DNA of 63,260 bases, counting the filler, from Stramenopiles sp. TOSAG23-3 (lineage: Eukaryota), in the NCBI GenBank assembly GCA_900128585.1. It is 9 parts of 9 records of this genome, joined end to end, with 100 filler letters (N's around TTAATTAATTAA, not from the genome) between each part and the next. Parts side by side here need not be neighbours in the genome. Positions count along the whole stretch, not along the records: positions 17,230 to 25,711 come from LT643011.1; 8 more parts are not named here. The stretch is one strand, 5' to 3'. Below the pieces are notes generated by a model. It saw only the letters and a list, made by a program, of their open reading frames with translations. It was not told the DNA's origin and ran no database searches. Every line of letters begins with the position of its first letter. The first letter of the stretch is position 1. Positions 8,516 to 62,038 of the stretch are shown here, in pieces. A program made the position numbers and the translations under genes.

Positions 8516-8615
8516 NNNNNNNNNNNNNNNNNNNNNNNNNNNNNNNNNNNNNNNNNNNNTTAATTAATTAANNNNNNNNNNNNNNNNNNNNNNNNNNNNN
8601 NNNNNNNNNNNNNNN
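8516..8615. other. Artificial contig linker N44-TTAATTAATTAA-N44 (also at 17130-17229, 25712-25811, 34293-34392, 42864-42963, 51432-51531, 59999-60098, 61630-61729)
   Basis: Identical 100-bp spacer carrying stops in all six frames. A plain N gap also occurs at 20581-20623. Confidence 0.98.
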
Positions 8616-16903: not shown

Positions 16904-17490
16904 GCGAGTTATCTATTAAAAATGCTTCGTGCAAGCGTCAGTTCTCTATAGTGTTGTCGTTCCATAAACGATGTATCATGTATGCCTGCGTCCCACAAGA
17001 ATGGTTTACAACCTATTCAAGTTGGTAATTGGAAACGATTCACATCATGTGTATTTTTTAAAATCATTGGTTAAAGATTATTACTTCTTTCAACACATTG
17101 TAATTAAGCTCAATAATTTGTGATTTAATNNNNNNNNNNNNNNNNNNNNNNNNNNNNNNNNNNNNNNNNNNNNTTAATTAATTAANNNNNNNNNNNNNNN
17201 NNNNNNNNNNNNNNNNNNNNNNNNNNNNNTTGTGGTTGTTTGGTTGTTTTTTTGTTTGTTTTTGTTTCTCTTCGCGTATATATATATAGTCTTAATAATA
17301 AATATATTTCAACGCAATTACAAACTAACTCTGTGTTGAAAGTTTTGAAATGGAAAGAAGAAAGATTGTTATGTACAGAAAGAAGTGGATGAAGATTTAG
17401 GCAGTGTTTGTTCGCACGCAAGTACGGAAGATTGTCATTGTCTAATACTATTAACGCATACATAGAGAGGAAGTTTCAACACGAGGGGAG

Positions 17491-18330
17491 ATGCCGTCGA
17501 ACTCTTCCTTTTCGGCGAAAAAGCGCTCTGTGACCGCAACTCGAAAGAAAACTAAGAAACGGATGCTTCAGAAGCAGAAAGGGTTGAGCGGGCAGTCAGA
17601 ATACGGCCTAAAAGCCCATGATTACAGCCAAGGGATGTATAAACGTAAAAAATTGTACGCTCATCAGAAAAAGCAGAAGGGTCCGTCGGACTTTGGCGGC
17701 GCACGGGTTCCAGACACAATTGCGGAAAAGGTAGTTCACGAATGCAGCACTTTTATGACGACCGAAGATAGGTTGCAGGCATTGTTGAAAAAGTTGGAAG
17801 AGGTGCGTGCGGTCTCTAGTGGAAAGAGACAGCGTGCTAAGACTGTAATATTCGTAAAGAACAAGAAAAGTGGGCTAATATTAGCCCCGAAGCTTGGCTG
17901 GGGAGGTAAGAGTGCGGAAGTTCTTTTGACCAAAAGGACGGCAAAGCACGGGACAGGATCTTTGGCTAGAATTAAAAGCGTCAAAGGCGTGGGCCTGCTT
18001 TCTGCAGCAGATGATGATGACGATGCCAGAGAGTTGGCGATAGACAAGTACAAAGCTGGAGCAATACACACCATGATCATTGCAGCACCAACCGAAGAGG
18101 ACCGTTTGGTCCAACTGTTGCTTCCTCAGGCAAACACAATAGCCGCATGCTTCGCATTGAACGCCCCTAGTTCAGAAACCAATTATATCGAGCGGTGTGC
18201 TTTGGTATCCCTCTCGAACGCCATTTCCAACCCTGGGATGCACACCCTTATGCTGAAGACAAAGCGTAATATTGAAGTTGGGGGGCCTATTTTTCAAAAA
18301 TTTAACGTAAAGATTGATGAATGTAGCTAG
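17491..18330 (+). CDS. Basic protein with a degenerate DEAD-box helicase C-terminal (RecA2) domain
   Basis: KTVIFVKNKK (motif IV-like), ARELAIDKYKAG, NAPSSETNYIER. Motifs V and VI are decayed. Lys/Arg-rich N-terminus. Confidence 0.65.
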   Translation: MPSNSSFSAKKRSVTATRKKTKKRMLQKQKGLSGQSEYGLKAHDYSQGMYKRKKLYAHQKKQKGPSDFGGARVPDTIAEKVVHECSTFMTTEDRLQALLKKLEEVRAVSSGKRQRAKTVIFVKNKKSGLILAPKLGWGGKSAEVLLTKRTAKHGTGSLARIKSVKGVGLLSAADDDDDARELAIDKYKAGAIHTMIIAAPTEEDRLVQLLLPQANTIAACFALNAPSSETNYIERCALVSLSNAISNPGMHTLMLKTKRNIEVGGPIFQKFNVKIDECS

Positions 18331-18468
18331 GCGCACTATTGGCGAGAGAGAGAGAGACAGTGTGCGTTAATTTTTTTAATTCCTAAATTTTACGAAAAGT
18401 ATGAAGGAAAAAAAACAAATTATGGAGAAAAAAAACAAAATAACAAATTATGATACCTTATAACTTAC

Positions 18469-20328
18469 TTACGATATGGTCAAGTCCTTGTGCTCGTCTT
18501 CGGCGTACTTGACCCATGACATAACGAGCCCATGGGCAGGCGCAGAAGGAGTGGGCGCCCCATCGGGGTGGTGGAGCAAGGCTTTTAATCGATCCAACGA
18601 CAGTTTTCCACGACTGACGTCCACTGCACAGGCAACCATTTTGCGCACCTGTTTGTGTCTAAACGATTTTCCCACAAATTCAATGGCAACCTCTCGGTTT
18701 CTGGTTCCGTTCTGTTCGGTGACCGCGATCCTAGTAATCTCCAAGTTGTTGTCTTTTCCCTTGCTGTTTTTCTTGTCGATAAACGACGTAAAGTCGTGCC
18801 TTCCAACAAAGCAATCCAATGCTGCCTTCAACAATTCTACATCAATTTTCCAAAACGAGACGTCCCAAACATACTGACGGCCCAACGCACAGCGTTTGCC
18901 AAGGGCTAACCGGTACGTGTACTGCTTCGATGCAGTGTTGCGGGGATTGAAGTCTCTCCCGACTTTCTTCAAATACCGGATAGAGATGTCCTTCCTCAGC
19001 CGCGAGTCGAGCCTGCGCGAAAACCCAGGAAGGTCTCCGGCGTCCTCCTTGGGAATCATGGCAGTTACCACCATTCCCAAACTATGCGTTCCTGAGTCGG
19101 TCCGGCCGGCGCTGTTAACGCGACCGTACAGTGTCGTTGTTCGGCGGACGGCGTCTTCGAGGGATTCCTGGACGGACAACAAGCCTTTCTTTTCCAGCGC
19201 CTGAAAACCGTGAAAGTCCGTCCCATCGTACTCTACAACAAACGCAACTTTTTCAAAATTTTCCAATACCATGGATTCGTCCACCTTAGCTTTCTTCGTT
19301 GCACAATCTTTGTCTTTCGGGCTAGGCTTCGGAACGCTGGCGTCTTGCATTTCACGAATTTTTCGTTTTGACAGCTTCCCTTGCGAGGGACGCTCGGAGG
19401 AGTACACGGTGGCGGCCAGTCGCCTTCTAACGAAAGGGAGGGGCGGGAGTCGCTCCCATGTTCCTTCCAGGACGTCGTACGAATAGAAATACCCGACCCA
19501 TTTCCCACTTGCGCTCCCCCCTACCAAATAAATTTTAGTTTCAAAAGCTGTCACTGCAAAGCCAAACCACCCCGTGCATGGCAAAGGCGACATATGCACA
19601 TACTTGTCGGCAACGGTGTCGTACCGAAAGACTCCAAACTTTTTTAACCCCCAAACTACAACGTACACTTGCCCCATCGCCGAGCAAGCACCGCAAGATG
19701 CTGATACTGGCAAATCGGCAATCCTCTTCCACTCGTCTTTTTCCTCGTCGTACACCTCTGAAGACGTCAGGGGTTTGTGGCTTCCCGCCGCCAGCCCCCC
19801 GAAGACGTAAATGCAATTGTCCACGGAGGCGGTGCCATGAAGCCTCCGTTCAGCCAGCATGGGAGCGCACTGAACCCACTTTTTGGACACGACGTTTTCC
19901 CCGTCTACCTTGTTCCCCAGGTCCATGCAGTCCACAGACGTGCATGCGACCGTTCCATACTTCCATCCCCCAATGCAATATATCTTTTTGCCTTGGTTGG
20001 TTGATGCGCCTGCCAGAGCGTGACGCGGGACTTCTACTGACTCAAAAAATTTCCACTCTTGCTCCTCCTCGGGTTGCCGAAGGTCCAAGTACTCGCACGT
20101 GCTTAAGTTCGAATCTACCCCTGACCCTGCAAGCGCAAACAAAATTCCCTCCGAGCTCGCCGCCACGCCCAGGCTGCCACGCGGTTCTTTCATTCTTGGA
20201 GCATGAGACCAAGAATTTTTTGCAAACGAAAAGCGGTCAACAAATCCTACTGTGTTCCCCCGCGAACGCCCGCCGACTGCGAACAAAAAAGTCCCCCCTT
20301 CCGCTGTATCGTTGGCTACTGCCGACAT
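18469..20328 (-). CDS. Kelch-repeat beta-propeller fused to a TruA-family tRNA pseudouridine synthase
   Basis: About six Kelch repeats (LFAVGG, IYCIGG, IYVFGG, IYLVGG). TruA motifs VEYDGTDFHGFQ, AGRTDSGTHS (catalytic Asp), GRHDFTSF, HKQVRKMV and APAHGL. Confidence 0.92.
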   Translation of the reverse strand: MSAVANDTAEGGTFLFAVGGRSRGNTVGFVDRFSFAKNSWSHAPRMKEPRGSLGVAASSEGILFALAGSGVDSNLSTCEYLDLRQPEEEQEWKFFESVEVPRHALAGASTNQGKKIYCIGGWKYGTVACTSVDCMDLGNKVDGENVVSKKWVQCAPMLAERRLHGTASVDNCIYVFGGLAAGSHKPLTSSEVYDEEKDEWKRIADLPVSASCGACSAMGQVYVVVWGLKKFGVFRYDTVADKYVHMSPLPCTGWFGFAVTAFETKIYLVGGSASGKWVGYFYSYDVLEGTWERLPPLPFVRRRLAATVYSSERPSQGKLSKRKIREMQDASVPKPSPKDKDCATKKAKVDESMVLENFEKVAFVVEYDGTDFHGFQALEKKGLLSVQESLEDAVRRTTTLYGRVNSAGRTDSGTHSLGMVVTAMIPKEDAGDLPGFSRRLDSRLRKDISIRYLKKVGRDFNPRNTASKQYTYRLALGKRCALGRQYVWDVSFWKIDVELLKAALDCFVGRHDFTSFIDKKNSKGKDNNLEITRIAVTEQNGTRNREVAIEFVGKSFRHKQVRKMVACAVDVSRGKLSLDRLKALLHHPDGAPTPSAPAHGLVMSWVKYAEDEHKDLTIS

Positions 20329-21038
20329 CGCTGTCAACTTTTTTCCCGTGGCGACAGGTGTGAAATAAAGTAGATTCAGACGACTATTCTTCTGTTAACT
20401 ATTTTTCGGGCTCCACTATTTTAGAGCTTATCGTTCAATTATTAAAAGTGACTGGTGACTGACGACTGCTGAAGCTACTATTTTTTATACTGAAGACCCA
20501 CCACCCACCACCAATTCATCCTATCTTCTATATTTTCTTCTTTTTTTTCTCTCCGTTTCTTCTTTTTCTTCTCTCCGATANNNNNNNNNNNNNNNNNNNN
20601 NNNNNNNNNNNNNNNNNNNNNNNAATAATAATTGAGAAGAATTACAAAGATACTATAAGTTACGGGTACTACCGATACCGTACTAGTCCCATAGGTAACC
20701 GTAGTAGCTAACTAGCAAGTTCAATTTTTAGATAGTACATTATTATTATTTTTTTTATTATTATTATATTATTGCGCGAAGAAGAAGAACACTTTTGTCT
20801 GTAGTATGGTGGAATTTGGAAATTGATCATGACAAAGAGTTTGTAATCAAGCACGTAATAAATGAGGGAACATCAAGAAAAGATTATTTATTTTACTAGT
20901 ATATACTGAATAGATGGTTGATCGGTTACGAGAAAAGTAAGGAAATTCTTCTTCGATTTTATTGAACCATATAGCGCTTGCAATTTGTCTATCGAACGGG
21001 GTGGGTAGGTGGGTGGGTTAGGGAGAATAGTTGTAAAT

Positions 21039-22535
21039 ATGAATATGCTTTGGTGCAAACTTTATGACCTTCCAGAGCTGAGGCTTGTGGAAACTGCGGA
21101 AATGTTAAACGAATACTGGCCTAAACCTTTGAAATGGCGTCTGCGGTGGCTGGGGCAATCGTCTGCGTCCGAAATGTCGCCTACCTCGTACGTGCTTATT
21201 GATCAGAGTGCAGACTGCGTCGCTGCACACGCCCGCCTATCGTCGCCCACGGTTTCTATTGGGGGCGTGGAAGAATTAGAAAAAGTTTCAGTTGTGGCCA
21301 CCTCCATTTTTGTTAAAAAGTCCTACCGTAAAAAGGGCATTGGAACGCGTGTTTTAAAGTACTTGGAAGAAGAGGCGTTCGAGAAAGGATTTGGCCGAAT
21401 AATTTTATGGACAAAAGACGCGTGCAAGTTCTATTCGAACAATGGGTTTTTGGAGTGTCGGCCGCTGAAGGTTACTCCCGTCGTAATAAAAAAGAGGCTG
21501 TCCGGATTGCAGGTAGGGCTATTGGAGAAAATGCTACAGCTCAAAAATGCTGCGAGAGGCGGCGAAGTCGTCAATGCTGCCGTTGAATTTGACACTGGGA
21601 ACGGTGATAATGCATCCGATGTTTGGTTCAGTAAGAGGGTCAGGGAACATTTCCCTAATGTTTTGTTAGAAAAACGTTGCTTAGAAGCCACGATAACGAA
21701 ACAAGCAGGGCGGTCGAAGCTCGTGCCTGGGGAAGCGTACTTTTGCAAAATGATACACGTCCCGTTCGAAAAGCAGATAGGGCCGATGTGTGGCATTTCT
21801 TTGCTTCGATGTGCACAAAAGTACTTCAAAAAAGCAAAGGTTGAGGGCACATGCACTGCCGAAACATTTTTGAAGTCATTCCCTATCCCCCTTGGTAGCA
21901 CTGTATACAAATCAAGAATGGCTGGGGAAAGGAATCATTTGTCCATTCTCGGGGAAGCCACGTCGCAACGAATGACTTACGATGGTGAAATTTTTGATAT
22001 CCAGGCGCTAGCAAAGCTGGCTTCGGGGGATGCGTGTGGTTTAGATGCGATTGTATTTTCTCCATTCTCCCTGGGGCTCATAGTCCAGGCTATCGTTCAC
22101 GAAAACCCACTTTTTTTGTGCTACGACCGGGGGATTGCAGGGGAGGAAGAAGTGTCCCTTTGTGGAGGAAAACATGCACATTGGGGCATGGTCGTGGGTG
22201 CAATGTTCCCCGATAGTCCCAAAGCAGACGTTGAAGTATCGTACGCGTGGGAAAATGCTGATTTCTCAGACCTAAGGAAAAAGAAACTAATGGAAACGGC
22301 GGGGGACGACCTAATCCTTGTGTTGCAACACACCATGTCGAAAAAGCCCGTGGCTGTACCATTCAACCAACTGAAAAAGAGCAACCAACAGTTACACGAA
22401 TCATTCTTGGAGATTTTTTCAGAAAACCATGGACAACCAATTCATCCATCACACGCCTATAAATTAAATTGGGTTGGAACAAAAGCACCCAATTTAGAAA
22501 ATGCTGCCATGGTATGTTGTCGACCACCATACTAA
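21039..22535 (+). CDS. NAA80-ACTMAP: Fusion of an NAA80-like actin N-terminal acetyltransferase (GNAT) and an ACTMAP/C19orf54-like actin maturation protease
   Basis: N-half: AEMLNEYWPK...RLRWLGQS...AHARLS...YRKKGIG...LWTKD...FYSNNGF...VWFSKRV. C-half: QIGPMCG, TYDGEIF, LCYD, GKHAHWGMVVG, LKKSNQQL. Confidence 0.85.
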   Translation: MNMLWCKLYDLPELRLVETAEMLNEYWPKPLKWRLRWLGQSSASEMSPTSYVLIDQSADCVAAHARLSSPTVSIGGVEELEKVSVVATSIFVKKSYRKKGIGTRVLKYLEEEAFEKGFGRIILWTKDACKFYSNNGFLECRPLKVTPVVIKKRLSGLQVGLLEKMLQLKNAARGGEVVNAAVEFDTGNGDNASDVWFSKRVREHFPNVLLEKRCLEATITKQAGRSKLVPGEAYFCKMIHVPFEKQIGPMCGISLLRCAQKYFKKAKVEGTCTAETFLKSFPIPLGSTVYKSRMAGERNHLSILGEATSQRMTYDGEIFDIQALAKLASGDACGLDAIVFSPFSLGLIVQAIVHENPLFLCYDRGIAGEEEVSLCGGKHAHWGMVVGAMFPDSPKADVEVSYAWENADFSDLRKKKLMETAGDDLILVLQHTMSKKPVAVPFNQLKKSNQQLHESFLEIFSENHGQPIHPSHAYKLNWVGTKAPNLENAAMVCCRPPY

Positions 22536-23131
22536 AATGCTATAAATAAACAGAGAAACAGAGAAACAAACAAACAACATTTGTGGAAACATTTACCGGT
22601 TACCGCGCCGTGCCTATTTTGGCAGGTGGGCGCTTCTTCTTTCTGCTTTCGCGAATCTTCTTTTTTTTATGAATGATGTTTCACCACCATAGAAAATACT
22701 ATTAATATTAATAATAAATGAAGAACAAATACCTTAATTTTATAAAATAGCTTCTTTTTTTTTATATTTTACCTTTTATTATTCTATCTTCGTCTTCATC
22801 ATTTATTTTTAATTATTAATATAATATTAAGGGGGAAAAGTGGCGTTGTTGCGACGACGGACGGTGGGGAGGACTGAGAAAGAAAAAAGAAACGAAGAAG
22901 AAGAAAAAAAGAAGAAGAAGAAAAGAAGAAGAAAGAGAAGAAGAAAGAAAAAAAAGAAAATTATTATTAGGAGACTAGAATATATCGTCTATCCAGATAA
23001 AAGTATTCTTTGAAAAATATTATTAAAGTAGAAGATGGTGCAGAGGAAGTGAGAAGGACAGGGAAATGTTATAGATTAAATTTGAGATTTCTGAATGAAA
23101 CTACAAATTGATTGTTTGTGGTAAAACTGTG

Positions 23132-24238
23132 ATGGCTACGTTGGAAGACCTGAATGAATACAAGGAGCAACTTGCAGGGGTTCGGGAGCTGCTGGCAAAT
23201 GACCCTGATAATGAAGAGTATAAAATGCTAGAGGCAAACTGCTTGGAAGTTATACAGTTAACGGAATCGGTGCTCGAAACGTCGATTCCTGAGGAAAAGG
23301 AAAAGAAAGCCGATCTTGAGTCCGAGCCAAAAGAGGCTGTCGCTGTCGAGCCTGCCCCCAAGCCGTCGCAGTCGGCAGGCGGTGCCCTTGCGCGATCCCA
23401 GCAGGTCGTGCCGTCTGCTGTGCCGCGCGTCCCTGACGTTCCGAAAGCATTAGAACGAGAGAAGAAGGCACTGTACGCTCGTGATGAACGGTGCGAAGTA
23501 CGCAGAAGAAAGGGTGTTGCCAGCGTCTGGTACCCTGCAGCAGTGCTCTCTGTGAACGTCGAGGGCAACAGTTGCAATTTGAAATTTCCTGACGCGCCAA
23601 ACAAACTTGTGGAAAACATAAAATTTAGTGATATGCGAAAGCTTCGGGCGGTAAAAAAGGTCGCAGAGGTGGCGGGGCTGAAAAAGGGGACGATGGCAAA
23701 GGCGTTTTACTTGGAGGATGGGCTGTGGTACAACGCCATGGTCGTTGGAACAGCGTATGAAATGGGGGGTGGCGGTGCCTGGTATTATGTAAAATTTTTG
23801 GAGTATGGCAACACGGAGATCTTGCCGGTCGAGTACATCGATGCCAGCGATCCAACCGCATCGGGGGACGGATCCGAAATGCGTCGAAAGAAACGGGCCG
23901 CGGTCGCTGCCCTCTCGGAGCGACCTGTGGACGAGAGTGTGCTGGAGGTGATTCCGCCGTCGTTGGAACTGTTGCCCTCCGACACGCCGGAAGAGCGCGA
24001 AAGTAAACTGAAGCGGCGAAAGGCAATCAAATCGAAGAACAGGTTTTTGAAGAAAGACATCGAGTCGAACAAAAAGCAGGCATCGTGGCAGTCGTTCCAG
24101 TCGAAAATATCGAAAAAGCGGAAGGTTGCGTCGGAGGGGGGGAAGAGGAAGAGGACTGGCGGCGGGTGGTCTGGCCCGAGCGGGGGCGGACTTATGAGCC
24201 GCCTGAAGAAGAAGGGGAGCCTGTTCAAGCGGAAGTAG
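23132..24238 (+). CDS. SMNDC1: Survival of motor neuron-related splicing factor 30 (SPF30/SMNDC1), with two Tudor domains
   Basis: N-terminal LNEYKEQLAGVRELLANDPDNEEY. Tudor AFYLEDGLWYNAMV...VKFLEYGNTEI. C-terminal IPPSLELLPSDTPEERE...KKQASWQSF. Confidence 0.9.
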   Translation: MATLEDLNEYKEQLAGVRELLANDPDNEEYKMLEANCLEVIQLTESVLETSIPEEKEKKADLESEPKEAVAVEPAPKPSQSAGGALARSQQVVPSAVPRVPDVPKALEREKKALYARDERCEVRRRKGVASVWYPAAVLSVNVEGNSCNLKFPDAPNKLVENIKFSDMRKLRAVKKVAEVAGLKKGTMAKAFYLEDGLWYNAMVVGTAYEMGGGGAWYYVKFLEYGNTEILPVEYIDASDPTASGDGSEMRRKKRAAVAALSERPVDESVLEVIPPSLELLPSDTPEERESKLKRRKAIKSKNRFLKKDIESNKKQASWQSFQSKISKKRKVASEGGKRKRTGGGWSGPSGGGLMSRLKKKGSLFKRK

Positions 24239-24352
24239 GCTGAGGGGCTTAAGGAAATTAAACATTTAAGCAAGTTCTTTAAATTCTTACTCTACTTCGA
24301 AAACCTCTTCGTAAGTATACGAAGAAGAGATTTTTTATTCTCGCCCGCTCTT

Positions 24353-25507
24353 TCAGTAGCGTACCGCCGTCTTGATGGCCTCGAACACCTTCAACGTGTC
24401 CGGCAAGTACACCTTCTCGAACACCAACGGGAACGGGGTGTCGTACCCACAGACGCGCTGAACTGGGGCCTCAAGACTAAGGAAGCAGCGCTGTTGAATC
24501 TCAGCAGCGACCTCTGCGGCGAAACCCCCCGTGCGGGGGGCCTCGTGGCTCACCACGCACCGTCCGGTCTTCTTGACGGACTCCGCGATCGTGTGCGCGT
24601 CCCACGGGACGATGGTCCTCAGGTCGATCAGTTCGCACGAGACGCCCAACTGCTCCTTCGCCATGTCACAGGCTTTTTTCAGCACGTGCACCTGCGCGCC
24701 CCACCCTACGACGGTGACGTCGCTCCCAGCTTCTACTATTTCTGCCTTGCTAAGGGGCAGCATGTAATCCTCCACGGGCACGTCCTCGACGGCGGCACGG
24801 TACAGCGCCTTCGGCTCCAAAAACACGACCGGGTTCTGGTCGCGAATGGACGCCAACAAGAGCCCTTTTGCCTGGACGGGGGACCGGGGCATGACTACTC
24901 TTAGGCCGGGGGTGTGTGCAAAGTACGCCTCTGGCGACTGCGAGTGGTAGTGGCCGCCGTGGCCGACGGCGCCGTACGGGGAGCGAATCGTCAGCTTCCC
25001 GCAGTCGAATATGTTCCCACTTCGGTACCTATATTTAGCAGCCTCGTTGACGATCTGGTCGAACGCGGGGAAAATGTAGTCCGCGAACTGAATCTCTGCG
25101 ATTGCCGTGTGCCCCATGGTGGCGTACCCGATGCCAAACCCGGCTATTCCCTGCTCGCACAGCGGCGTGTTGAAGACACGGTGCTCCCCAAACTCTTCCT
25201 GCAAGTCTACCGTGCACCGAAATACTCCCCCGAACCCGACGTCCTCCCCGAATATGACCGCCATGTCGTCGGTCTTCAAGGCAATCCTCATTGCGTCGTT
25301 GAGCGCGGTGAAAAGGTTCATCCGTTCCTTCGGGCCCGACGGCAGAACGTCCGACGGCTCTGGCAAGGACTGCGAAAAGTCCACAGCGTCCGCGGACGCC
25401 GCCGAGGAGAACGACGCGGCGACCGCTACGGGCCGCGTGCAGTGCTTCGTGGCCGCAGCAACCAACGAGGTCCGGCCAAGAACCGTTCTTGCTGTTGACG
25501 TGAGCAT
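24353..25507 (-). CDS. BCKDHB: Mitochondrial 2-oxoisovalerate dehydrogenase E1 beta subunit
   Basis: [67 protein letters not shown]. Arg/Thr-rich transit peptide from ATG 25507. Confidence 0.97.
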
Positions 25508-25813
25508 CTTTTTATTTCCTGTCTTTTCTTTCCTTAAAAATGAATGCAAGAACACACAAGAGACAGGGAAAAAACGGAACAAAATGGTATAGTATGTCTA
25601 CTTTGTTATTTAATTTCTTCAAGTTTCTACCGTGTTGCTTCGGTAGTACGAATTCTATATAAACCAAGAAGAAGGAAAGAGGTACGAACCATTTTTGGAA
25701 CCGCGGGTACTNNNNNNNNNNNNNNNNNNNNNNNNNNNNNNNNNNNNNNNNNNNNTTAATTAATTAANNNNNNNNNNNNNNNNNNNNNNNNNNNNNNNNN
25801 NNNNNNNNNNNAC

Positions 25814-34292: not shown

Positions 34293-34392
34293 NNNNNNNN
34301 NNNNNNNNNNNNNNNNNNNNNNNNNNNNNNNNNNNNTTAATTAATTAANNNNNNNNNNNNNNNNNNNNNNNNNNNNNNNNNNNNNNNNNNNN

Positions 34393-34798: not shown

Positions 34799-37700
34799 TC
34801 AACGTCCAAAATCATCATCTACATCTGAAAATGGCAAGATTACGTTTACCGCCCCCTCCTCCTCGCGGTTGTCGTTCCCCGCGTTATTTGTGCCGTCTCG
34901 CTGTAAATTTGGTAATTCCAAAGAAATTTCATGGGGGGCTGAAGAGATCCCACCTGACCTTGCGCCAGAGTGGTTTGCCATTTGCACCTCCAGCTTATTG
35001 ATTATTTTGGCCTTCTTCACGGCTCTTTGAAATGCTTTTTGACGATGCTTTTGCCGTGAATTGTAACTGCGAAAAATCTTTTGTAGCTGAATTGCCGAGT
35101 GGTGACTATGCGGTCGTCTGCCATGGCTTTCGAGCCAAACCGCGTCTAACTTATTGATCAGCTTGATTTTATTGACAGCTTTGTTGAAGGCCTTGTGCCG
35201 ATGTTTTAACCGCAAGCTGTACCCTCGAAATATTCTTTGCAAGTGCACGGCCGACTCATGACTGCGTTTTTTAACGCGATGGCTATGAAGCCATTCCATG
35301 TCCGCGATGCTGGGGTGCGCTGACAGTCTTACTTTCAGCTGGTACGACTCAAAGTTGACTTTGGAAGGGTGCTTCTCAAAATGCTCTACCATTTCTGAGC
35401 CAAGCGTGGATTTTTCTCGGAAAATGAGAAGGGTGCCACCGAACGTGGGAAGAAAGTACATGATAGAATAAACCAACTGAAAAAGTGCGGACATGGTCAT
35501 CCGTGATTGAACAAACGACGCCAAAGCCTCTCGACACCGAAAATTTCCTGGGCAGTTATGTGCCGTGCCCCATATACTCATACTGGCTGCTTCTACATCT
35601 TTTTCTGACCAATTGTCCCGTACCGAATCTCCTGCCGATTGCGCCGCAAAACTGAAAATGATCACTCCTGTGGAAAAGGACACCAGCATGCAAGCAATTG
35701 CCGTTGTTGTAAAAACCATCATCGTCCTTTTATTCCGAGACAGAAGTCCATGCATGCCAAGAATGGAGTTCAAAGTCAAAAAACACCCTGGCAGCACAGC
35801 GATTAGGTCGTACAATATTCCAAACCTTCCAATCCACGAAAAACCTAGCCCTGAGCCAATCATTCCAGTTAGGAGCAGAAGCAAGTTGCCCACAAGCAGG
35901 TTTGTGTGCGATGTAGCTTTGGATCCAAGGATTATTGCAGATCCAATGTAACCTGCACCAGAAATAATAGAAAGCAGCACAAAATACACCCCTGCGACGA
36001 TCATTTTACCGCGAAGGCTGAACGGCAATATGTCGTTCGACAAGCGGCCGATGTACGATGCCAAAATATCAGGGAGCCAAAAGCACGAGCACCCAAACAC
36101 CAATGCATACAATGACACTAATACCTGCGAGTAGGCGTACACGAGCAAAGACGCCCCGGGCACCCCAATACGCTTTGCATCAAAGCCCTTGGCACCCAGG
36201 CTGTGCAGTGCCGCTGACCAAAATAATAGTGAAGGTCTCAGCGACCAGAACCCCAGGACAAGGATGGCCAGGGCAAACAGTGTTTGAAATACCGACGTCA
36301 CCTTAATGATTACGTACCCAACATTTCGGTTTCTATGCTCTTTAAACTCATGGTCGTGGACGTCGCCCAAAGCAATTTTCCACAGTCGATTGATGTCACC
36401 GTACCCATGATGTGATTCAAGGAAGGCAATGGCAGACTTTCGCTTGCTGTGGTTAAACTTACAACACAAGATCGATGTAACTATAAGTATCAACAGGGTT
36501 GACCAAATCACCCATTCTGCTACCGGGGAACTAACGGCCATAAAACGGCCTGAGACGTTTTCCTGTTTGCAGAATTGGACAGGCTCGGGACATTCCACAG
36601 ACCCACTAAAGCCGGGGATATTCAACTCACCGCCTGGACTAGGGCAGTCGTACCAATACATACCGTAGAAACCTTCAATGCCAATTTGCAGGTCGCTTGG
36701 GGTAGCGCAATTAGTGCGATAGCAGAGTCCTAACTTCCCTTTCGCCAGAAAGAGCACAGACGCCTCTCGGAGATCGGATCGTAGGCAACGGCACGTGGGG
36801 CAAATGGATTGTCCCCCAAAAGCACCGATGGACTTGCGGGTATCACTGGACAATAAATCGGTAGCACTCACTCCGCCCATTCCTCCTTCAGAAAAGTCGG
36901 TGGTTGAAAATTTTGTATATGCACAATTCCAAACACCAACTGACACAGGGGCATAGTCCATGGCCGGGTTCCACCCTCCAAGATTCGTTTTCCCCAGCCA
37001 CCGGTAAGGTTTGGGGATGTTTGGTCTTGCTGAAACCGAACTGCTCCCTGATATACGGCATGTCTTGGGCCCAGTAGGCGGCGCTGTGCATGTATCGCGC
37101 CCAAGCGTGTCAAAAACTGCTGGGTGCTTTGCAGTATAGGATTTGTGGACACAGTCGGCAGACATCCTGTTGTCAGGGGCACAACCGCTTATGCCGTTTT
37201 CGGCGCACTGGTAAATACTAGGCCATGCGCTGACAAGCCCATCGAAAAACGCGCACCCTTCTTCGCGGCCCCACCGAAGGTATCCTTTCGAACGTTTCTT
37301 ATTCACCTTCAACTCGTCCTCTGTTGCGTCTCGGGGTGGTGATCCAAAGAGAGAAATTTCTGCACCTGCCTGCCCATCCGTCGAAGGCCTGACAAGACTG
37401 CCGGCCTCGTCATAATTTACCCCATAGTGACCAGTGTCTGCCAAAAACGCCAGCGTTATGTCTGACAAATAAGACTCCCCACTCCTAGTACCATAGGACA
37501 TCATTTCTGGACCGAATTGCCTTGCTTCCCAGTGCGTCCCAGTTCCTCGCGGTAAATCCTCCAGCGCGGGGCCTTCGGACGTTTCGCATGAAGTCTGCTC
37601 TTTCCACAGTTGCGTGACGGTCGGTAATTTAATGTGCATCACATCTTTCTTCAATTCAGGGCTGTACTTAATTTGCCAAGTATTGTCTCCCGAAGGCACG

Positions 37701-38491
37701 TTGATGTTGCTGGACTTGCTAGGGTGAAAATGGTCCATTTTGACAGCACCGAGGACGTGAAACAGTTCGTGGAGTGTGGTTCGGCGTTCCAGCTCTACAA
37801 CGTTTGAGGCATTTTGACCCTTCGGCTTCAATTTTCTAGGGCAGAGATTAAAATATCCCAGTATGCACCTGTTGTTGCTATCGTGCATGATGCAACCCGC
37901 ATACCCTGCCACATTATCGCTGTCGTGTTTCCTCAGAGTCGCAATAATAACCAGGTCCGTTCCGTTCAGCAGCTGGTTCTGGGCGTTTAACTCATCGACG
38001 TAAGCTGTCCACGACCCAGACAGGGCCGCCTTATCGACGCGTATCCCTGCCGTCCGTTGGTTTACACTAATCAATTTGCTCAGCTTTGAGCTTGCCCAAG
38101 CTAGTCGTTTCCTTGCTAATTTCTTGATTTCAGGAGAGACCACGTCTGGATCCTTGCATACAACTGGGCAGCTACTTGCCTCGAGTCGTCCTTGGCAAGG
38201 GTCGACAGTCGCCCCTGCGCTAGCACAGGAAAACTGATCACCATCAAACAAATCCCACAAAATTTTTATTCTAATAGGTTCCTTGGTATTGTTAACTGCG
38301 CTTAGCTTTCTACTAGTCGAATATCCTGCCTCATCCTCCGGCAGTTCATATATTTTCTTTTTGTCCAAAGCGTCATGATCTAGCAGCCCGGTTCCACAGA
38401 TCGTGCCGTCAGAGAAGCCATGTTCGTGGGATTCCGCGGCTGCAAACAGCAATAGGAAGAAGCAAGCTAAATGCAACGGTGGAAAAACCAT
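34799..38491 (-). CDS. Leishmanolysin/GP63 (peptidase M8) with a multi-TM region and two IQ motifs
   Basis: Signal peptide from ATG 38491. HELFHVLG zinc motif, GTHWEAR third ligand, EMMSY Met-turn. About nine hydrophobic segments. IQ-like LQRIFRGYSLR and LQKIFRSYNSR. Confidence 0.92.
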   Translation of the reverse strand: MVFPPLHLACFFLLLFAAAESHEHGFSDGTICGTGLLDHDALDKKKIYELPEDEAGYSTSRKLSAVNNTKEPIRIKILWDLFDGDQFSCASAGATVDPCQGRLEASSCPVVCKDPDVVSPEIKKLARKRLAWASSKLSKLISVNQRTAGIRVDKAALSGSWTAYVDELNAQNQLLNGTDLVIIATLRKHDSDNVAGYAGCIMHDSNNRCILGYFNLCPRKLKPKGQNASNVVELERRTTLHELFHVLGAVKMDHFHPSKSSNINVPSGDNTWQIKYSPELKKDVMHIKLPTVTQLWKEQTSCETSEGPALEDLPRGTGTHWEARQFGPEMMSYGTRSGESYLSDITLAFLADTGHYGVNYDEAGSLVRPSTDGQAGAEISLFGSPPRDATEDELKVNKKRSKGYLRWGREEGCAFFDGLVSAWPSIYQCAENGISGCAPDNRMSADCVHKSYTAKHPAVFDTLGRDTCTAPPTGPKTCRISGSSSVSARPNIPKPYRWLGKTNLGGWNPAMDYAPVSVGVWNCAYTKFSTTDFSEGGMGGVSATDLLSSDTRKSIGAFGGQSICPTCRCLRSDLREASVLFLAKGKLGLCYRTNCATPSDLQIGIEGFYGMYWYDCPSPGGELNIPGFSGSVECPEPVQFCKQENVSGRFMAVSSPVAEWVIWSTLLILIVTSILCCKFNHSKRKSAIAFLESHHGYGDINRLWKIALGDVHDHEFKEHRNRNVGYVIIKVTSVFQTLFALAILVLGFWSLRPSLLFWSAALHSLGAKGFDAKRIGVPGASLLVYAYSQVLVSLYALVFGCSCFWLPDILASYIGRLSNDILPFSLRGKMIVAGVYFVLLSIISGAGYIGSAIILGSKATSHTNLLVGNLLLLLTGMIGSGLGFSWIGRFGILYDLIAVLPGCFLTLNSILGMHGLLSRNKRTMMVFTTTAIACMLVSFSTGVIIFSFAAQSAGDSVRDNWSEKDVEAASMSIWGTAHNCPGNFRCREALASFVQSRMTMSALFQLVYSIMYFLPTFGGTLLIFREKSTLGSEMVEHFEKHPSKVNFESYQLKVRLSAHPSIADMEWLHSHRVKKRSHESAVHLQRIFRGYSLRLKHRHKAFNKAVNKIKLINKLDAVWLESHGRRPHSHHSAIQLQKIFRSYNSRQKHRQKAFQRAVKKAKIINKLEVQMANHSGARSGGISSAPHEISLELPNLQRDGTNNAGNDNREEEGAVNVILPFSDVDDDFGR

Positions 38492-38902
38492 CGCATATGC
38501 ATATGGTGCATGCGGACTAAAAAACACTAGAGTTTCCAGTTGCAATTGCAAGTAAAGTGGCGAAAACTTTTCAGAGACATTACTGTACAGGTACATTGCA
38601 TTTGTTTACGGCAGCGTTTTGGTTTGACTCTGTATATAGTCATTTGAAACATTATTATCAATATGATACCCAAGAGAGTTTACTTCTTCTTCTTCTTTCT
38701 TCTTCTTCTTTATTGTTCCGTTTTTTTAGTAAATGATGATGTTTGTATCATCCTCTTCCTCTTCCTCTTCCTCCTCCCCTCCTTTTATTATTATTATTTT
38801 AATCCTTATATCATATGATATTTTATTATATTTCTTATTATAGGTTTTATTATATTAATCTCACAACTAAAATGCTAGCCCCCCCCGCTCTAAACGCACA
38901 GC

Positions 38903-41900
38903 TCACTTTTGACCCGCCATCTCTTTCGTGTCTACACTGTCACCGTGGCAACTGAGACTGATTCGTGGGCGACGGTTCGCCCGTGGGTCAAGGTAGCTCA
39001 CGAACGACAACAAATCGTCGCCGTTCGGGATGAATGTGAGCCCGTAGTTTGTCTCTGGGCTGGTAATCCACTCACGGAGCCAGTCGCTGATGTCTATTGC
39101 AAGCCACTCGTTCTTTCGCTCACCCTTTACCTTCACGCAGTTCTTTGCCACTGGGCCGTTGAACGCCGGCTTTGACCTCCACGTCACTTCCGCCGCCTTC
39201 CACGGGCGAATGATTTTGCACACGGTGACGTCGTTGACGCTCTCGTCCAGGACGAACAGCCTCAGCCATGCCGTCTTCAGCATCTGGCCCTCCACACTTT
39301 GCGACAGAAAATTGTTCAGGCGAATCTTCATCAGCACCCTGGTTTCCGTGCCAGCCTTGGAGTCCTTCCCCGTGGTCAGGACGGATGAAGGAGAGAAGTG
39401 CTCTTCTGCGTCGTCGTCGCCATTTTTTACCTCCACGGCCGAGAGCGCGTCCGAGTTCAGCTGGATCGACTTTGGTGCAATCCGGTTCTCGCTGCCAACC
39501 TTGCAGCTCCAACGGCTCGACTCCGGCTCCTCCTTCTCGAAGCTGTGGGTGGCCTCGCCCACCCGGACCCGGCAGAACACTTCCTGCCCTCTCATCCGGT
39601 AATCGTCATGCGTGAAGATCCAGAACGCGTCCTTTCGGATCCCTGGGACAAGGCCCCACGGCAAAATCCCATTTTGGCCCTCCTCCACCGCAGTCGGCCA
39701 TTCCTCTTTTGGCTTGAAGTCCTTCTTCGCCCAGTCGTGGATGTCTTTGTTCGTTGCGGTGCAGCGCCACGACGAGCTCGTCACAAGGTCTTTCCCAAAC
39801 GTTCCAAGGATCCCAGAGCGCGCATCGTCCCCACCCTTGGCTTTGATGGCGTACGTTTCCGTTCCCAGGGGGGCCCTGAACCGGAACGTATCCTTTGCTG
39901 GCTCGAACCACTCCCCCTTGCCCAAAGACTTCCCGTCCGCAAAGAGTTCGAAGTCTTTGTCCGCCACCAGTGCAACTGGGATGCCCCCTGCCTCCAGCTT
40001 CACGTTGTCCACGAACCAATTGTTGCAGCAGTAGCACGTGTGGTTGGCCTGGAAGAAGCGGAGCTGGGTCTGCTTGGACAGGGCATGCTTTGGCAGCCTG
40101 GCCGTCATCGTTTTGAACTTTCCCCCGTTGTCCTGGAACAGCGTGCCGTAGACCTTTTCTGGGTACGCCTTCAACTGCTTCCAATGGGACTGGTTTCGCT
40201 CGCACTCCAGCTGCCCAGCAGTGCAGTACTGGACAAGCGGGTCGAACGCATCCGCAACCTTCAGCGTCTCTGCAGCGATCAGCTCCGTCTTCTCCTCCTC
40301 CATGCTCTCCTTCAGGTTTTCCTTGGCCTCCTCCTGCTCTTCTTCCGACTCTTGGGCAGCGACCTTTTCGACCTTTTCGTCCCCCGTCGCTGTCATGTCA
40401 TTGACGCAGTTCGACAACGCTTCCTCCGTCTGGATCTCCGGCTTGCTCTTGCACATCTTGATCGCCTGCGCTTGGGACATCTTGTCCTTTTTCTCGTCGC
40501 CCAGGGTCTTCTCGTTCAGGACACGGTCCCTTGCAAACTCTCGGGCGATCGTCGCCTCGGCATCCACCATTGCAGCCATCGCCATCTTTTGCTTGGACTG
40601 CGCTGTGCTCTTCAACGACTTGAAGTACGGCGAGTACCGGAACCCTGGTTTCCACGCCCCGCACTTGAAGTAGGAGTCCTTGGCACCGACCTGGAACTTG
40701 TTCCTGGCCTCGCGCGAAATCTGGTGGTGGTGCCGTTTCCCCCTGCCATAGATCAGGGCCCGGGCGTCGTTGTTCCGGTTCCCATCGAAACTCCCGCAGA
40801 GGCCGTCGGATTTTCCATCCTTTGGGGCAGTGACGCGAATGTACACGTTCAGCCAGTACGCCGAGCCACACTGCCCTCTCCACCACCGGTACCGCCACCA
40901 GCCCCCAAGGTAAATGTTTCCGACCCCCCGCATGTAAATGTAGCGCCCGCCGTTGTAGCGCAGGGCACCGTCGGGCGAGCTCCAGGCCCTGCCCCACCCA
41001 ATGTTCTGGCAGCCCCCGTTGCCAGTGTTGACACGGACCTGAAAGCGGTTCCCGTTCCCACAGTGGGGCTGCTCAATGCTGAGCACAAAGTTCTTGTACT
41101 TGACGGCGACCCCTGCGGTGGCAGAGATGCGAGGGTGCGCCATGCGCGTCAGCTCGTGGACTTCAAAGCCAAGCTTTGGGTGCTTGAACATGAGGAACTC
41201 CCCAGCGTCGTAAATGTTGTACCGCATCCCATCGAGGGTCAGCGGGTGGGGGTCCCCCACGCTCTGGCACTCTGCGGACGCCAGGTGGACCTCGCACTTC
41301 TTGCCAACGTACCCAGGGTTGCACCGGCAGGTGCAAGTCCTGCTGTCGGCCTCCCAAAAACTGTTGTAGTACGGTTTCTTCTTGGTGTAGGTGCTCTTGT
41401 AGATGCCCTTGCCATGGCCGCTGCAGGGCGGGTTGTTCTCGCACCGGCGGCGCTGGTTCAGCTCCTCCTTCTGCAGGTCTCTAAACTTGTCCTTGAGCAT
41501 TTTCACCCGCGCCTTTTCCGCCTGCTCCTTCTTCTTCTTCTTTAAGTCCTGCTCTGCCTTTCTTTTCCTGTCCTCCTCGGACTTTACAAGCTTCAAGTGG
41601 TTCTTCAAGCAGCCGTCTTCGCCGTTCTCCTCCCCCAGTTTCAGGTCGAAGGTAAGGAGGACGCCCGTCTTGCTTGTCGACATGTCCATGGGCCACGTCG
41701 TCAGGTGCCTGCTGCCGTCGAAGAGGTGGCTCTCCCCCCTTGCGTTCCCGTCAAAGTTCATCCCTTTGTTCCCTTTCAGGTCGACAATGTGGGAGAGGCC
41801 CGCCTTCTCCGTTTCGACCCAGTTCTCTTTCTTCCAGCCCTCCTTGAAGTCGTCCTCCAGCAGGACGTTCAGGGGCTCGTCGAAGCGCACTTCCTCCTCC

Positions 41901-42298
41901 TCCTTCTCCTGCGTGTTGTTCTTTGCCGCCTCCGCCTTTGCCCGTTCGGTAAGGCAGGTCTTGAAGACGGACTTGACGACGGCGTTTGGGACTTTGACGT
42001 TTGCCCGGCGGGCCGCGTGGAAGAGTTCCTTGATCCTCGTCGCGTTGCAGTCGATCTTCTTCACGTAGTCCACCACGAACGAGCCTGCCTTGTCGCTCTC
42101 GCTCTTCCCGTCGGCTTTCTCCTCGTCCTTGTCGTTTCTCCCCCTATGCCCCCTGCCCTTCCCATGCCCACTCTTTGCTTTCAGCAACCGTACCCCATGG
42201 TGAACCCGGCCTTCCACGTGGATAACTTCGGCACCTACAAGCAACACTACCAGCAAGAGCCCAAGCGTTGTCGTTGACGTTCGTCCTTGCCTTGCCAT
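38903..42298 (-). CDS. Secreted mosaic protein: reelin-like repeat, EGF, VWD, lectin-like beta-sandwich and C-terminal DNRLRE/CBM96-like domain
   Basis: Signal peptide. EGF CSGHG...CTCRCNPGYVGKKCE. VWD CQSVGDPHPLTLDG and GLCGSFDGN. Reelin-like TQLRFFQ...WFVDNVKL. C-terminal VTWRSKP...IDISDWLREWITSPETNYGL...RRPRISL. Confidence 0.85.
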   Translation of the reverse strand: MARQGRTSTTTLGLLLVVLLVGAEVIHVEGRVHHGVRLLKAKSGHGKGRGHRGRNDKDEEKADGKSESDKAGSFVVDYVKKIDCNATRIKELFHAARRANVKVPNAVVKSVFKTCLTERAKAEAAKNNTQEKEEEEVRFDEPLNVLLEDDFKEGWKKENWVETEKAGLSHIVDLKGNKGMNFDGNARGESHLFDGSRHLTTWPMDMSTSKTGVLLTFDLKLGEENGEDGCLKNHLKLVKSEEDRKRKAEQDLKKKKKEQAEKARVKMLKDKFRDLQKEELNQRRRCENNPPCSGHGKGIYKSTYTKKKPYYNSFWEADSRTCTCRCNPGYVGKKCEVHLASAECQSVGDPHPLTLDGMRYNIYDAGEFLMFKHPKLGFEVHELTRMAHPRISATAGVAVKYKNFVLSIEQPHCGNGNRFQVRVNTGNGGCQNIGWGRAWSSPDGALRYNGGRYIYMRGVGNIYLGGWWRYRWWRGQCGSAYWLNVYIRVTAPKDGKSDGLCGSFDGNRNNDARALIYGRGKRHHHQISREARNKFQVGAKDSYFKCGAWKPGFRYSPYFKSLKSTAQSKQKMAMAAMVDAEATIAREFARDRVLNEKTLGDEKKDKMSQAQAIKMCKSKPEIQTEEALSNCVNDMTATGDEKVEKVAAQESEEEQEEAKENLKESMEEEKTELIAAETLKVADAFDPLVQYCTAGQLECERNQSHWKQLKAYPEKVYGTLFQDNGGKFKTMTARLPKHALSKQTQLRFFQANHTCYCCNNWFVDNVKLEAGGIPVALVADKDFELFADGKSLGKGEWFEPAKDTFRFRAPLGTETYAIKAKGGDDARSGILGTFGKDLVTSSSWRCTATNKDIHDWAKKDFKPKEEWPTAVEEGQNGILPWGLVPGIRKDAFWIFTHDDYRMRGQEVFCRVRVGEATHSFEKEEPESSRWSCKVGSENRIAPKSIQLNSDALSAVEVKNGDDDAEEHFSPSSVLTTGKDSKAGTETRVLMKIRLNNFLSQSVEGQMLKTAWLRLFVLDESVNDVTVCKIIRPWKAAEVTWRSKPAFNGPVAKNCVKVKGERKNEWLAIDISDWLREWITSPETNYGLTFIPNGDDLLSFVSYLDPRANRRPRISLSCHGDSVDTKEMAGQK

Positions 42299-58924: not shown

Positions 58925-60215
58925 ACTGTTCCTGGTCTTTGTATATAGTGTTTCGATAAATCTTCAATTCTTAAGTCCTCGGTATGTTACTGTTTGTGCG
59001 CGTATGCGTCTGTGAGCCGATTGTGAAAAAATTAGCGATACCATCCATACGTAGAAAGAAGTATGTTAATGTATACATCACTAGTCATGGATGGTCGGGT
59101 ACTGCAATTGGATTGGATTCGAGAATATTAATTACAGTGTATTATATAATATTTTTTTTATTTCTTCTTCTTTTCTTCTTCTTCTTCTTCTTCTTTCTTC
59201 TATTTTTTTTATTATTATTATTATTTATTATATTTTTTTTTGTTGGGGTAGGGGTAGGGAGGAAGAGGATGGGCGGCCGGCATCGTTTGTCGTGTGTTTT
59301 AGATCAATAATATAGATTATTATTTTTTCCTCTTTCTTTTATTTTTTTTATCGAAGAAGAGTTTATTGTACAGGTTATAGGCAGTAGTCGTTCTACTATC
59401 GCTTTATTACGTACAATATTCTCTTCGCTCTTTTCGCCCTCTTTCTTCCTTGTAAGAAATATTGTATCTTCTTTCGATCTCTTCTTTACTTTAATCTCTT
59501 TTGTAGTTTTATTAATTATAGTATATATATTTTAAATAGGTAATTTATGTTTTTTATCCGATTTGAGATTCCTTCTCAACCACACACACCACCGAATTAA
59601 ATGTTGTCTCTTCAATAATTAAGGTATACATATATATATCATGTAATGATTAATATAATTATATACATTCTATAGAATATAGAAACATAATAAATATTAT
59701 TTGATTATGTATATAGTTTTACTTAATTTATGAAGGGAACAAGAGATGGTGATTTTATAAAATAATACAGTTGAGGAAAAAGATCTTTCATAAATAATTA
59801 ATATTGAAGCAAATAGTATGGCATAGCATGGATCCTTTTGCTACTCACGCTCCTTTTTCGCTACTTTTATAATAAGCGAGACGACTGTTTCTATTTCTAT
59901 GTTAATTCTCTATTTATACCACTTGACATCCATGCTGTTCTACTGACTACACTTTTAAAATTATGAACGGAACTACGAAAACTCTGCTGTGCTGTGCTNN
60001 NNNNNNNNNNNNNNNNNNNNNNNNNNNNNNNNNNNNNNNNNNTTAATTAATTAANNNNNNNNNNNNNNNNNNNNNNNNNNNNNNNNNNNNNNNNNNNNAT
60101 ACCGCGAAAATGAATCTACTCATTTTGTCCATCAAAGGTTTGTTTACGTTCCTTCATGTACTGCGAACATATCTTTGATTTTTTTCTTCGGGAAGATAAG
60201 CTCTTGGCCAGTATT

Positions 60216-61589: not shown

Positions 61590-62038
61590 CCCCAACTGTG
61601 AGTTTTTTAAGTTAAAGAAAGAGAACAGCNNNNNNNNNNNNNNNNNNNNNNNNNNNNNNNNNNNNNNNNNNNNTTAATTAATTAANNNNNNNNNNNNNNN
61701 NNNNNNNNNNNNNNNNNNNNNNNNNNNNNCAATTTTTTTTCTCTCTTTCGTCTCTTTTAGTTGTGCGTTTGTTATTTATATTCTAATTAGTAGTTTGTTG
61801 TTATTAGAGAATTTTTATTATTTTATTTAACCGTCCACACTCTTGGAATGCTACCGGTACCTGGTACGTACACTTTAATCAGAGAAATAATTAACTAGTT
61901 AGAAACATGATCGTTATCTGTTTGTTTTTCTGTAGTTATCGTCTGGTACAATTAAATTTGAAGTTGTTTTGCATCTGAAATCACGAAGGCTAGTCGGCTC
62001 TTTCTTATTATTATTCTTTATTTTTTTTCGACACTGCC

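Follow-up and report, generated by a model that had tools for sequence, protein, structure and literature searches.

Can the two enzymes that complete the actin N-terminus in animals reside in a single protist polypeptide? This question is raised by an open reading frame (ORF) on the plus strand of a 63,260-nucleotide joined stretch of Stramenopiles sp. TOSAG23-3 (the window, along which all coordinates count), within the part at 17,230-25,711 that derives from LT643011.1. In the animal pathway, actin is made as Met-Asp/Glu or Met-X-Asp/Glu, acetylated co-translationally, then trimmed by ACTMAP and re-acetylated by NAA80. The ORF encodes a protein whose N-terminal half was assigned, by sequence and structural model, to the NAA80-type GNAT acetyltransferases, and whose C-terminal half was assigned to the ACTMAP-type papain-like cysteine peptidases. 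From sequence, structural models and analogy, we consider it probable, at about two chances in three, that this one polypeptide comprises two active enzymes which jointly mature the actin N-terminus. The fusion would be a variant of a known actin-maturation system, and its function is a predicted, well-founded one.

An uninterrupted ORF spans both domains

The whole coding sequence (21039..22535, +) comprises 498 codons followed by TAA, needs no intron, and could be aligned end to end with a fused homologue, P0003, which has the same architecture and is 25% identical over 89% of the query (BLASTP). The ORF was listed as 21009..22535 (+), encoding 508 residues from a GTG start, and is preceded by a TAG in the same frame at 21006. 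Translation likely begins at the ATG at 21039, because the aligned Met of P0003 sits in the same column. The first-pass annotation of this DNA had described one stop-free ORF inside a single contig, and this was confirmed: the 498-codon frame is free of stops, no N occurs across its 1497 bases, and it lies in an N-free stretch (20624..25711). The nearest N run, 43 N at 20581-20623, is found in an AT-rich intergenic region 416 bp upstream of the ATG. All of the motifs quoted in that annotation were present in the translation (MLNEYWPK..WRLRWLGQS, AHARLS, RKKGIG, VWFSKR, QIGPMCG, TYDGEIF, CYD, GKHAHW and SNQQL), and the two codons it had singled out read as it stated, 21789-21791 being TGT (Cys251) and 22179-22181 CAT (His381).

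The N-terminal half resembles NAA80

The putative NAA80-type GNAT core occupies residues 1-142 (21039..21464, +), as delimited by Pfam and by the best PDB sequence and structure matches. Pfam Acetyltransf_1 matched residues 22-137 at 8.1e-12. A single-sequence search of all PDB chains placed human NAA80 (6nas_N, 5.6e-8) and Drosophila NAA80 (5wjd, 9.4e-6) ahead of the next GNATs (3.3e-4), and a 75-member family profile returned 5wjd at 2.7e-30 and 6nas_N at 2e-28, followed by the Bacteroides GNAT 9y12 at 1.3e-11. For the full-length protein, AlphaFold gave a model with a predicted local distance difference test (pLDDT) score of 85.9 and a predicted template modelling (pTM) score of 0.87, with the GNAT secondary structure present. 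When this full-length model was used in Foldseek, the top five rows were all NAA80 entries. In an exhaustive structural comparison (VIA), two NAA80s were matched with Z 21.3 (root-mean-square deviation [rmsd] 2.4, 157 aligned) and Z 20.6 (rmsd 1.6, 145 aligned), the next GNAT reached Z 16.9, and the identity to NAA80 in the structural alignments was about 24-28%. Thus NAA80 was the best solved relative by single sequence, family profile and structure, with no other GNAT closer, and on this sequence and model evidence the N-terminal half is an NAA80-type GNAT, as the first-pass annotation had proposed. As an observation apart, 9y12, a Bacteroides fragilis GNAT whose function is not known, was the best solved match after NAA80 (Foldseek 1.1e-7) and is possibly a bacterial relative of NAA80.

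Residues that matter for NAA80 function were traced through the alignments. Conservation is given below over the 75 aligned members of the protein family described further on, and family occurrence over 151 proteins, namely the best 150 of 1246 matches and the query. Human NAA80 is rendered catalytically dead by changes at W105, R170, G173 and Y205 (Rebowski 2020), and in the printed sequence alignment these residues correspond to W27, R97, G100 and Y132. For Drosophila NAA80, W36, R43, S46, K73 and S88 are reported to hold the acidic peptide, and the activity of the W36 and R43 alanine mutants was not detectable (Goris 2018). Of these, W36, R43, K73 and S88 aligned with W27, R34, R66 and S89, and the segment from W27 to R34 (21117..21140, +) is the predicted alpha1-alpha2 substrate-recognition segment. 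W27 was kept in 68/75 family members and S89 in 40/75, counts for which the MAFFT columns in this loop are perhaps imprecise. The predicted acetyl-CoA loop, R97-K-K-G100-I-G102 (21327..21344, +), fits R/Q-x-x-G-x-G/A, its R97 and G100 being equivalent to human R170 and G173; conservation was 66/75 for R97, 64/75 for G100, 72/75 for G102 and 74/75 for Y132. The last GNAT beta-strand carries VWFSKR (21621..21653, +); it was modelled as a strand at residues 195-200, the structural match to NAA80 reaches residue 201, and W196, K199 and R200 were kept in 69, 69 and 71 of the 75 members, respectively.

The core and the last strand are separated by an insert of residues about 143-194 (21465..21620, +), which was modelled with a pLDDT of 41-60 (10-residue blocks over residues 141-190). 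Its position matches that of the Pro-rich profilin-binding loop, which in human NAA80 lies before the last beta-strand (Rebowski 2020). The first-pass annotation had stated that the insert lacks such a polyproline tract, and this holds for the protein throughout, in which the longest Pro run is 2; the insert itself has one Pro. Across the family, runs of at least 5 Pro were found in 4/151 proteins, none of these runs lying within the GNAT insert. Drosophila NAA80 also appears to be without the long loop (solved chains of 159 vs 235 residues), and by analogy the Pro-rich loop may be a mark of vertebrate NAA80 rather than of the whole family. A separate observation concerns residues 156-172 (21504-21554), a helix of the insert with the pattern L..L....V..LE.ML..R, in which E163 is nearly invariant across the fused family; this helix, modelled at low confidence, occupies the site of the human profilin-binding loop.

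The C-terminal half resembles ACTMAP

An interdomain segment of residues 206-235 (21654..21743, +) separates the half-profile matches, which cover residues 15-205 and 237-495, and the median gap between these matches in the family was 39 residues. The remaining residues, 236-498 (21744..22532, +), were assigned to an ACTMAP-type papain-like cysteine peptidase domain by Pfam, Atlas clusters and fold. Pfam ACTMAP-like_C (PF21646) matched residues 299-388 at 2.3e-11, with 44.6 bits vs a curated cut-off of 27. When residues 236-498 were used as the query in the ESM Atlas, the nearest clusters were ACTMAP-like_C (score 0.96), chordate ones included and one from Verrucomicrobiota. With the ACTMAP-like_C match above the Pfam cut-off and DUF3335 found in 0/151 family members, the earlier naming of this half as ACTMAP-like was upheld.

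No PDB chain matched the C-terminal half by sequence, either with the single sequence or with the family profile, and no solved ACTMAP was among the matches. Folded alone, this half reached a pLDDT of 83.2, and in the exhaustive VIA comparison all 50 listed matches were cysteine peptidases or papain-like proteins. The best were the C39-like peptidase 3erv (Z 13.9, rmsd 2.9, 154 aligned) and PeiR (8z4h, Z 13.8), followed by Alr0975 (2btw, Z 13.5) and the PCAT1 peptidase domain (Z 12.9). Word-index searches with three queries (whole protein, 75-sequence alignment and peptidase-only alignment) returned 2, 2 and 4 matches, respectively, with no animal ACTMAP or NAA80 among them.

The candidate catalytic residues are nearly invariant in the family. 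The motif QIGPMC (21774..21791, +) contains Gln246 and, five residues later, Cys251, which stands at the N-terminus of a helix (251-265). His381 (22179..22181, +) opens a model strand (380-394) within the Pfam ACTMAP-like_C match, and a near-invariant Asp363 (22125..22127, +) belongs to a YD motif. Gln246, Cys251 and Asp363 were each kept in 74/75 members and His381 in 73/75. By comparison with papain-like enzymes, we take Gln246 to be the likely oxyanion-hole residue, Cys251 the likely nucleophile and His381 the likely general base, and presume that their placement is the papain-type arrangement. The papain/C39-like fold agrees with the published AlphaFold model of human ACTMAP, which was likened to bacterial cysteine proteases and whose nucleophile is reported to be C132 (JACS 2026).

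The fused architecture recurs in distant protists

The family was collected with a profile of the TOSAG23-3 protein and P0003, searched against 1.84 billion representative proteins. At E ≤ 1e-3 this search returned 1246 proteins, of which 307 reached ≤ 1e-10 and 113 reached ≤ 1e-30. Among the 151 family proteins, Pfam matched ACTMAP-like_C in 145, Acetyltransf_1 in 138 and Acetyltransf_7 in 139, and DUF3335 (PF11814) in none at E ≤ 0.001. The GNAT-then-ACTMAP order was found in 147/151, a count that is partly circular, since the half-profiles derive from members of the family and a search begun with fused proteins is biased towards fused matches. The four exceptions comprise a 115-residue fragment of the TOSAG23-3 protein and three proteins encoded on contigs shorter than 1.8 kb. 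These three (P0101, P0161 and P0163) had been considered as standalone forms and were not counted as unfused, because their contigs are 947-1794 bases long and the genes may be incomplete.

Among the named fused members are the hypothetical protein DIPPA_16051 of Diplonema papillatum and UniRef A0A7S4C3U6 of the haptophyte Chrysotila carterae, annotated as "N-acetyltransferase domain-containing protein", and two fused homologues are MMETSP transcripts marked as complete ORFs. The survey of protist proteins that the first-pass annotation had suggested thus found the same architecture to be widespread, in distant protists (diplonemid, haptophyte and MMETSP) as well. Furthermore, the pairwise identities of the two halves were correlated (r = 0.78 over 2145 pairs, from the 66/75 sequences well covered in both), a value reached in 0/999 permutations. 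This correlation is consistent with one old fusion, and two separate genes sharing a species history would produce it too. As judged from sequence, there is in protists a large family of fused NAA80-ACTMAP proteins that is apparently undescribed, although public databases already contain its members, labelled with generic names. No description of an NAA80-ACTMAP fusion was found in the literature covered, outside which lie Haahr 2022 and Table S2 of Drazic 2018, both of which may bear on priority.

A proposed route from nascent to mature actin

In the proposed mechanism, the ACTMAP-type half, with Cys251, His381 and Gln246, would take off the first residue of actin, acetylated during translation, and so expose an acidic residue. 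The NAA80-type GNAT would then re-acetylate the new amine through the loop R97..G100.G102, with W27, R34, R66 and S89 as the contacts to the acidic peptide. Fused in this way, the two activities would act in a 1:1 ratio on a single actin monomer, and the fusion may take the place of the polyproline loop through which human NAA80 binds profilin and is recruited. Such a replacement of profilin-mediated recruitment is perhaps to be considered because Pro runs of the length given above are so rare in the family and never lie in the GNAT insert. What we infer here comprises the activity of each half, the choice of actin as substrate, the sequence of the two steps and any channelling from one site to the other. 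A pathway of this kind is plausible in protists, because Dictyostelium has an NAA80 orthologue and processed actin (Drazic 2018), and a Paulinella actin is acetylated at Glu3, from which NatH was inferred for Cercozoa (2022 letter).

Several points weigh against this proposal. In the sequence alignment, the peptide contact S46 of Drosophila NAA80 is replaced by Trp37, and E87 by Thr88. R34 was kept in only 37/75 family members and is Y in 28/75, with the same imprecision of the MAFFT loop columns possible. The profilin-binding polyproline tract is absent, as described above. For the C-terminal half alone, Foldseek returned nothing at E ≤ 0.001, the best E being 7.9e-3, and the putative correspondence of Cys251 to human C132 is drawn from its conservation, its helix position and the preceding Gln246 rather than by direct alignment of the human sequence. 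The RNA support considered below consists of sequence words found in the assembled contigs of a single run, and an RNA library can carry DNA. Finally, the 17 other ORFs scanned in the window (at least 300 residues each, of 20 listed) included no actin.

Alternative readings

It is extremely unlikely that assembly or gene calling merged two neighbouring genes. The 43-N run 416 bp upstream of the ATG would fit such an event, but the ORF itself has neither a stop nor an N, the full-length model is a confident one, and the 90%-identity cluster contains 13 near-identical full-length members of 498 or 508 residues, independent copies from ENA, JGI/IMG and Logan assemblies. The same order is shared by the 147/151 relatives, complete transcripts included. 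The stretch or part of it was also contained in 20/24 listed sequencing runs across 13 studies, marine metagenomes among them, and the metatranscriptome X5 contained 1.00 of the sampled words of 20900-22700, which is supportive, short of conclusive, as a sign of transcription. No sign was seen of a misjoin between the domains or of separate transcripts, the two events that the first-pass annotation had named as decisive against it; for the latter, the evidence of X5 and of the two complete MMETSP ORFs is weaker than that on domain identity and misjoin. We regard as very unlikely, too, a kinship with the bacterial fusions of a GNAT and a DUF3335/C39-like domain, which are thought to modify peptides and would be unrelated to actin. 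Such fusions, mentioned in a classification paper (JBC 2023), have the same order, acetyltransferase then papain-like peptidase; the nearest large Atlas clusters for the whole protein are bacterial Acetyltransf_1 + DUF3335 (score 0.92), and the closest folds of the C-terminal half are bacterial C39-like ones. However, the peptidase family differs by Pfam, PF11814 being matched by none of the 151 proteins at the threshold above and not by the TOSAG23-3 protein even at E ≤ 1. Moreover, the C-terminal half alone went to the ACTMAP-like_C clusters at 0.96, the GNAT half is specifically NAA80-like, and the surrounding stretch is eukaryotic, with HECT, RCC1, ankyrin, Kelch, SUN and anoctamin domains. 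When prokaryotic genomes were scanned with the peptidase-only alignment, a method of limited sensitivity, 54 pattern matches were obtained, of which 0 were confirmed.

The two remaining alternatives accept the identity of both halves. One half could be a non-catalytic docking module, leaving the protein with one step only, and the Thr88 found in place of Drosophila E87, once proposed as the general base, would be in keeping with this. Yet the E87A and E87Q fly enzymes stayed active (Goris 2018), and here the acetyl-CoA loop, the W, R, G and Y of the catalytic-dead set, and Cys251 and His381 are all kept at the frequencies given above, which makes a docking module quite improbable. Alternatively, the protein could be bifunctional as described and act on a substrate other than, or wider than, actin, namely proteins with acidic N-termini. 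Drosophila NAA80 was more active in vitro on non-actin-type peptides such as MDEL (Goris 2018), the peptide contact S46 is W37 here, position 34 alternates between R and Y in the family, and the loop that recruits actin-profilin is missing. Against this stand the description of actin as the sole cellular substrate of NAA80 in animals (Rebowski 2020, Goris 2018), the observation that the presence of NAA80 tracks actin N-terminal processing (Drazic 2018), and the retention of W27, R34, R66 and S89 in the TOSAG23-3 protein. We consider a substrate of this kind unlikely, while giving it real weight, and retain joint maturation of the actin N-terminus by two active enzymes as the preferred reading.

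Comparison with known systems

In reviews and recent papers, NatH/NAA80 and ACTMAP-dependent actin maturation are called exclusive to animals. The statement of the first-pass annotation that NAA80 is usually described as animal-restricted therefore stands for the reviews; it does not stand for Drazic 2018, which names an orthologue of NAA80 for some Amoebozoa, among them Dictyostelium, whose unique actin processing was discovered in 1981. The extension of the pathway beyond animals is accordingly not new, as it is in print for Dictyostelium and Paulinella.

Compared with NAA80/NatH of human and Drosophila (CG8481), the N-terminal half shares the GNAT fold, the equivalents of R97, G100 and Y132, in this protein the probable equivalents of W27, R34, R66 and S89, and an insert before the last strand; it differs in being fused to a peptidase, in having an insert without Pro-rich sequence, and in carrying Trp for S46 and Thr for E87. 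The C-terminal half shares with ACTMAP/C19orf54 the Pfam ACTMAP-like_C match, Atlas clusters that include chordate ones, and a papain/C39-like fold with Cys and His. Whereas ACTMAP is free-standing, the corresponding domain is here the C-terminal part of what would be a two-enzyme protein, a comparison made via the family model and not the human sequence. The bacterial GNAT + DUF3335 fusions share the domain order; their peptidase is of another Pfam family, and the GNAT found here is of the NAA80 type. A further likeness is offered by plant AMPP2 + GNAT7, in which a dedicated aminopeptidase and then a dedicated N-acetyltransferase act on one very abundant protein, the Rubisco large subunit. 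The authors of that work compare the pair with ACTMAP and NAA80; however, the plant enzymes are called analogues, are separately encoded, and differ in substrate and compartment.

Evolution and implications

The fused protist family offers independent, Rosetta-stone genomic evidence for the functional coupling of the two steps, and indicates that the machinery goes back much further, and is spread more broadly, than is commonly held. The reading further predicts that position 2 or 3 of actin is occupied by an acetylated acidic residue in many protists, a mark reported once, in Paulinella. A tentative extension, which we hold to be possible but doubtful, is that the fused gene is ancestral, with the NAA80-ACTMAP protein and acetyl-acidic actin N-termini going back to early eukaryotes and the separate genes of animals and Amoebozoa arising by fission. 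An ancestral fused state would explain the presence of the protein in diplonemids, haptophytes and TOSAG23-3. If this were true, the two human proteins would be predicted to be a physical pair on actin still, and the textbook line of the pathway as an animal invention would be overturned. In practical use, one small gene doing both steps could simplify the production of natively processed recombinant actin in hosts without the pathway.

Other genes and features of the window

The window is eukaryotic and gene-dense, with 20 ATG-started ORFs of at least 300 residues in 63 kb, and the domains found on its other ORFs comprise HECT/RCC1, ankyrin, Kelch, SUN, anoctamin and leishmanolysin. Its source is a single-celled eukaryote with a compact genome that occurs in marine metagenomes. 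The upstream neighbour of the fused gene (18469-20328, -) is a 619-residue ORF that pairs Kelch repeats (Kelch_1 at 2e-32, N-terminal half) with a TruA-type pseudouridine synthase domain (PseudoU_synth_1 at 1.4e-25, residues 506-608), an unusual combination. Farther along lie a 1265-residue leishmanolysin-like M8 peptidase (34799-38596, -) and a 1131-residue ORF with CBM96 and reelin-subrepeat matches (38903-42298, -), the latter in the most GC-rich region (GC 0.589 at 40001-42000). Opposite this ORF, and overlapping it, a 645-residue ORF (39608-41545, +) is probably spurious. The remaining genes named, at 48732-50870 (+) and 45458-47593 (-), encode an anoctamin and a SUN-domain protein. Paired 44-N runs recur about every 8.58 kb (8516-8615, 17130-17229, 25712-25811, 34293-34392, 42864-42963, 51432-51531, 59999-60098 and 61630-61729), a regular spacing that resembles masking or formatting more than ordinary scaffold gaps; the run at 20581-20623 is the sole single one.

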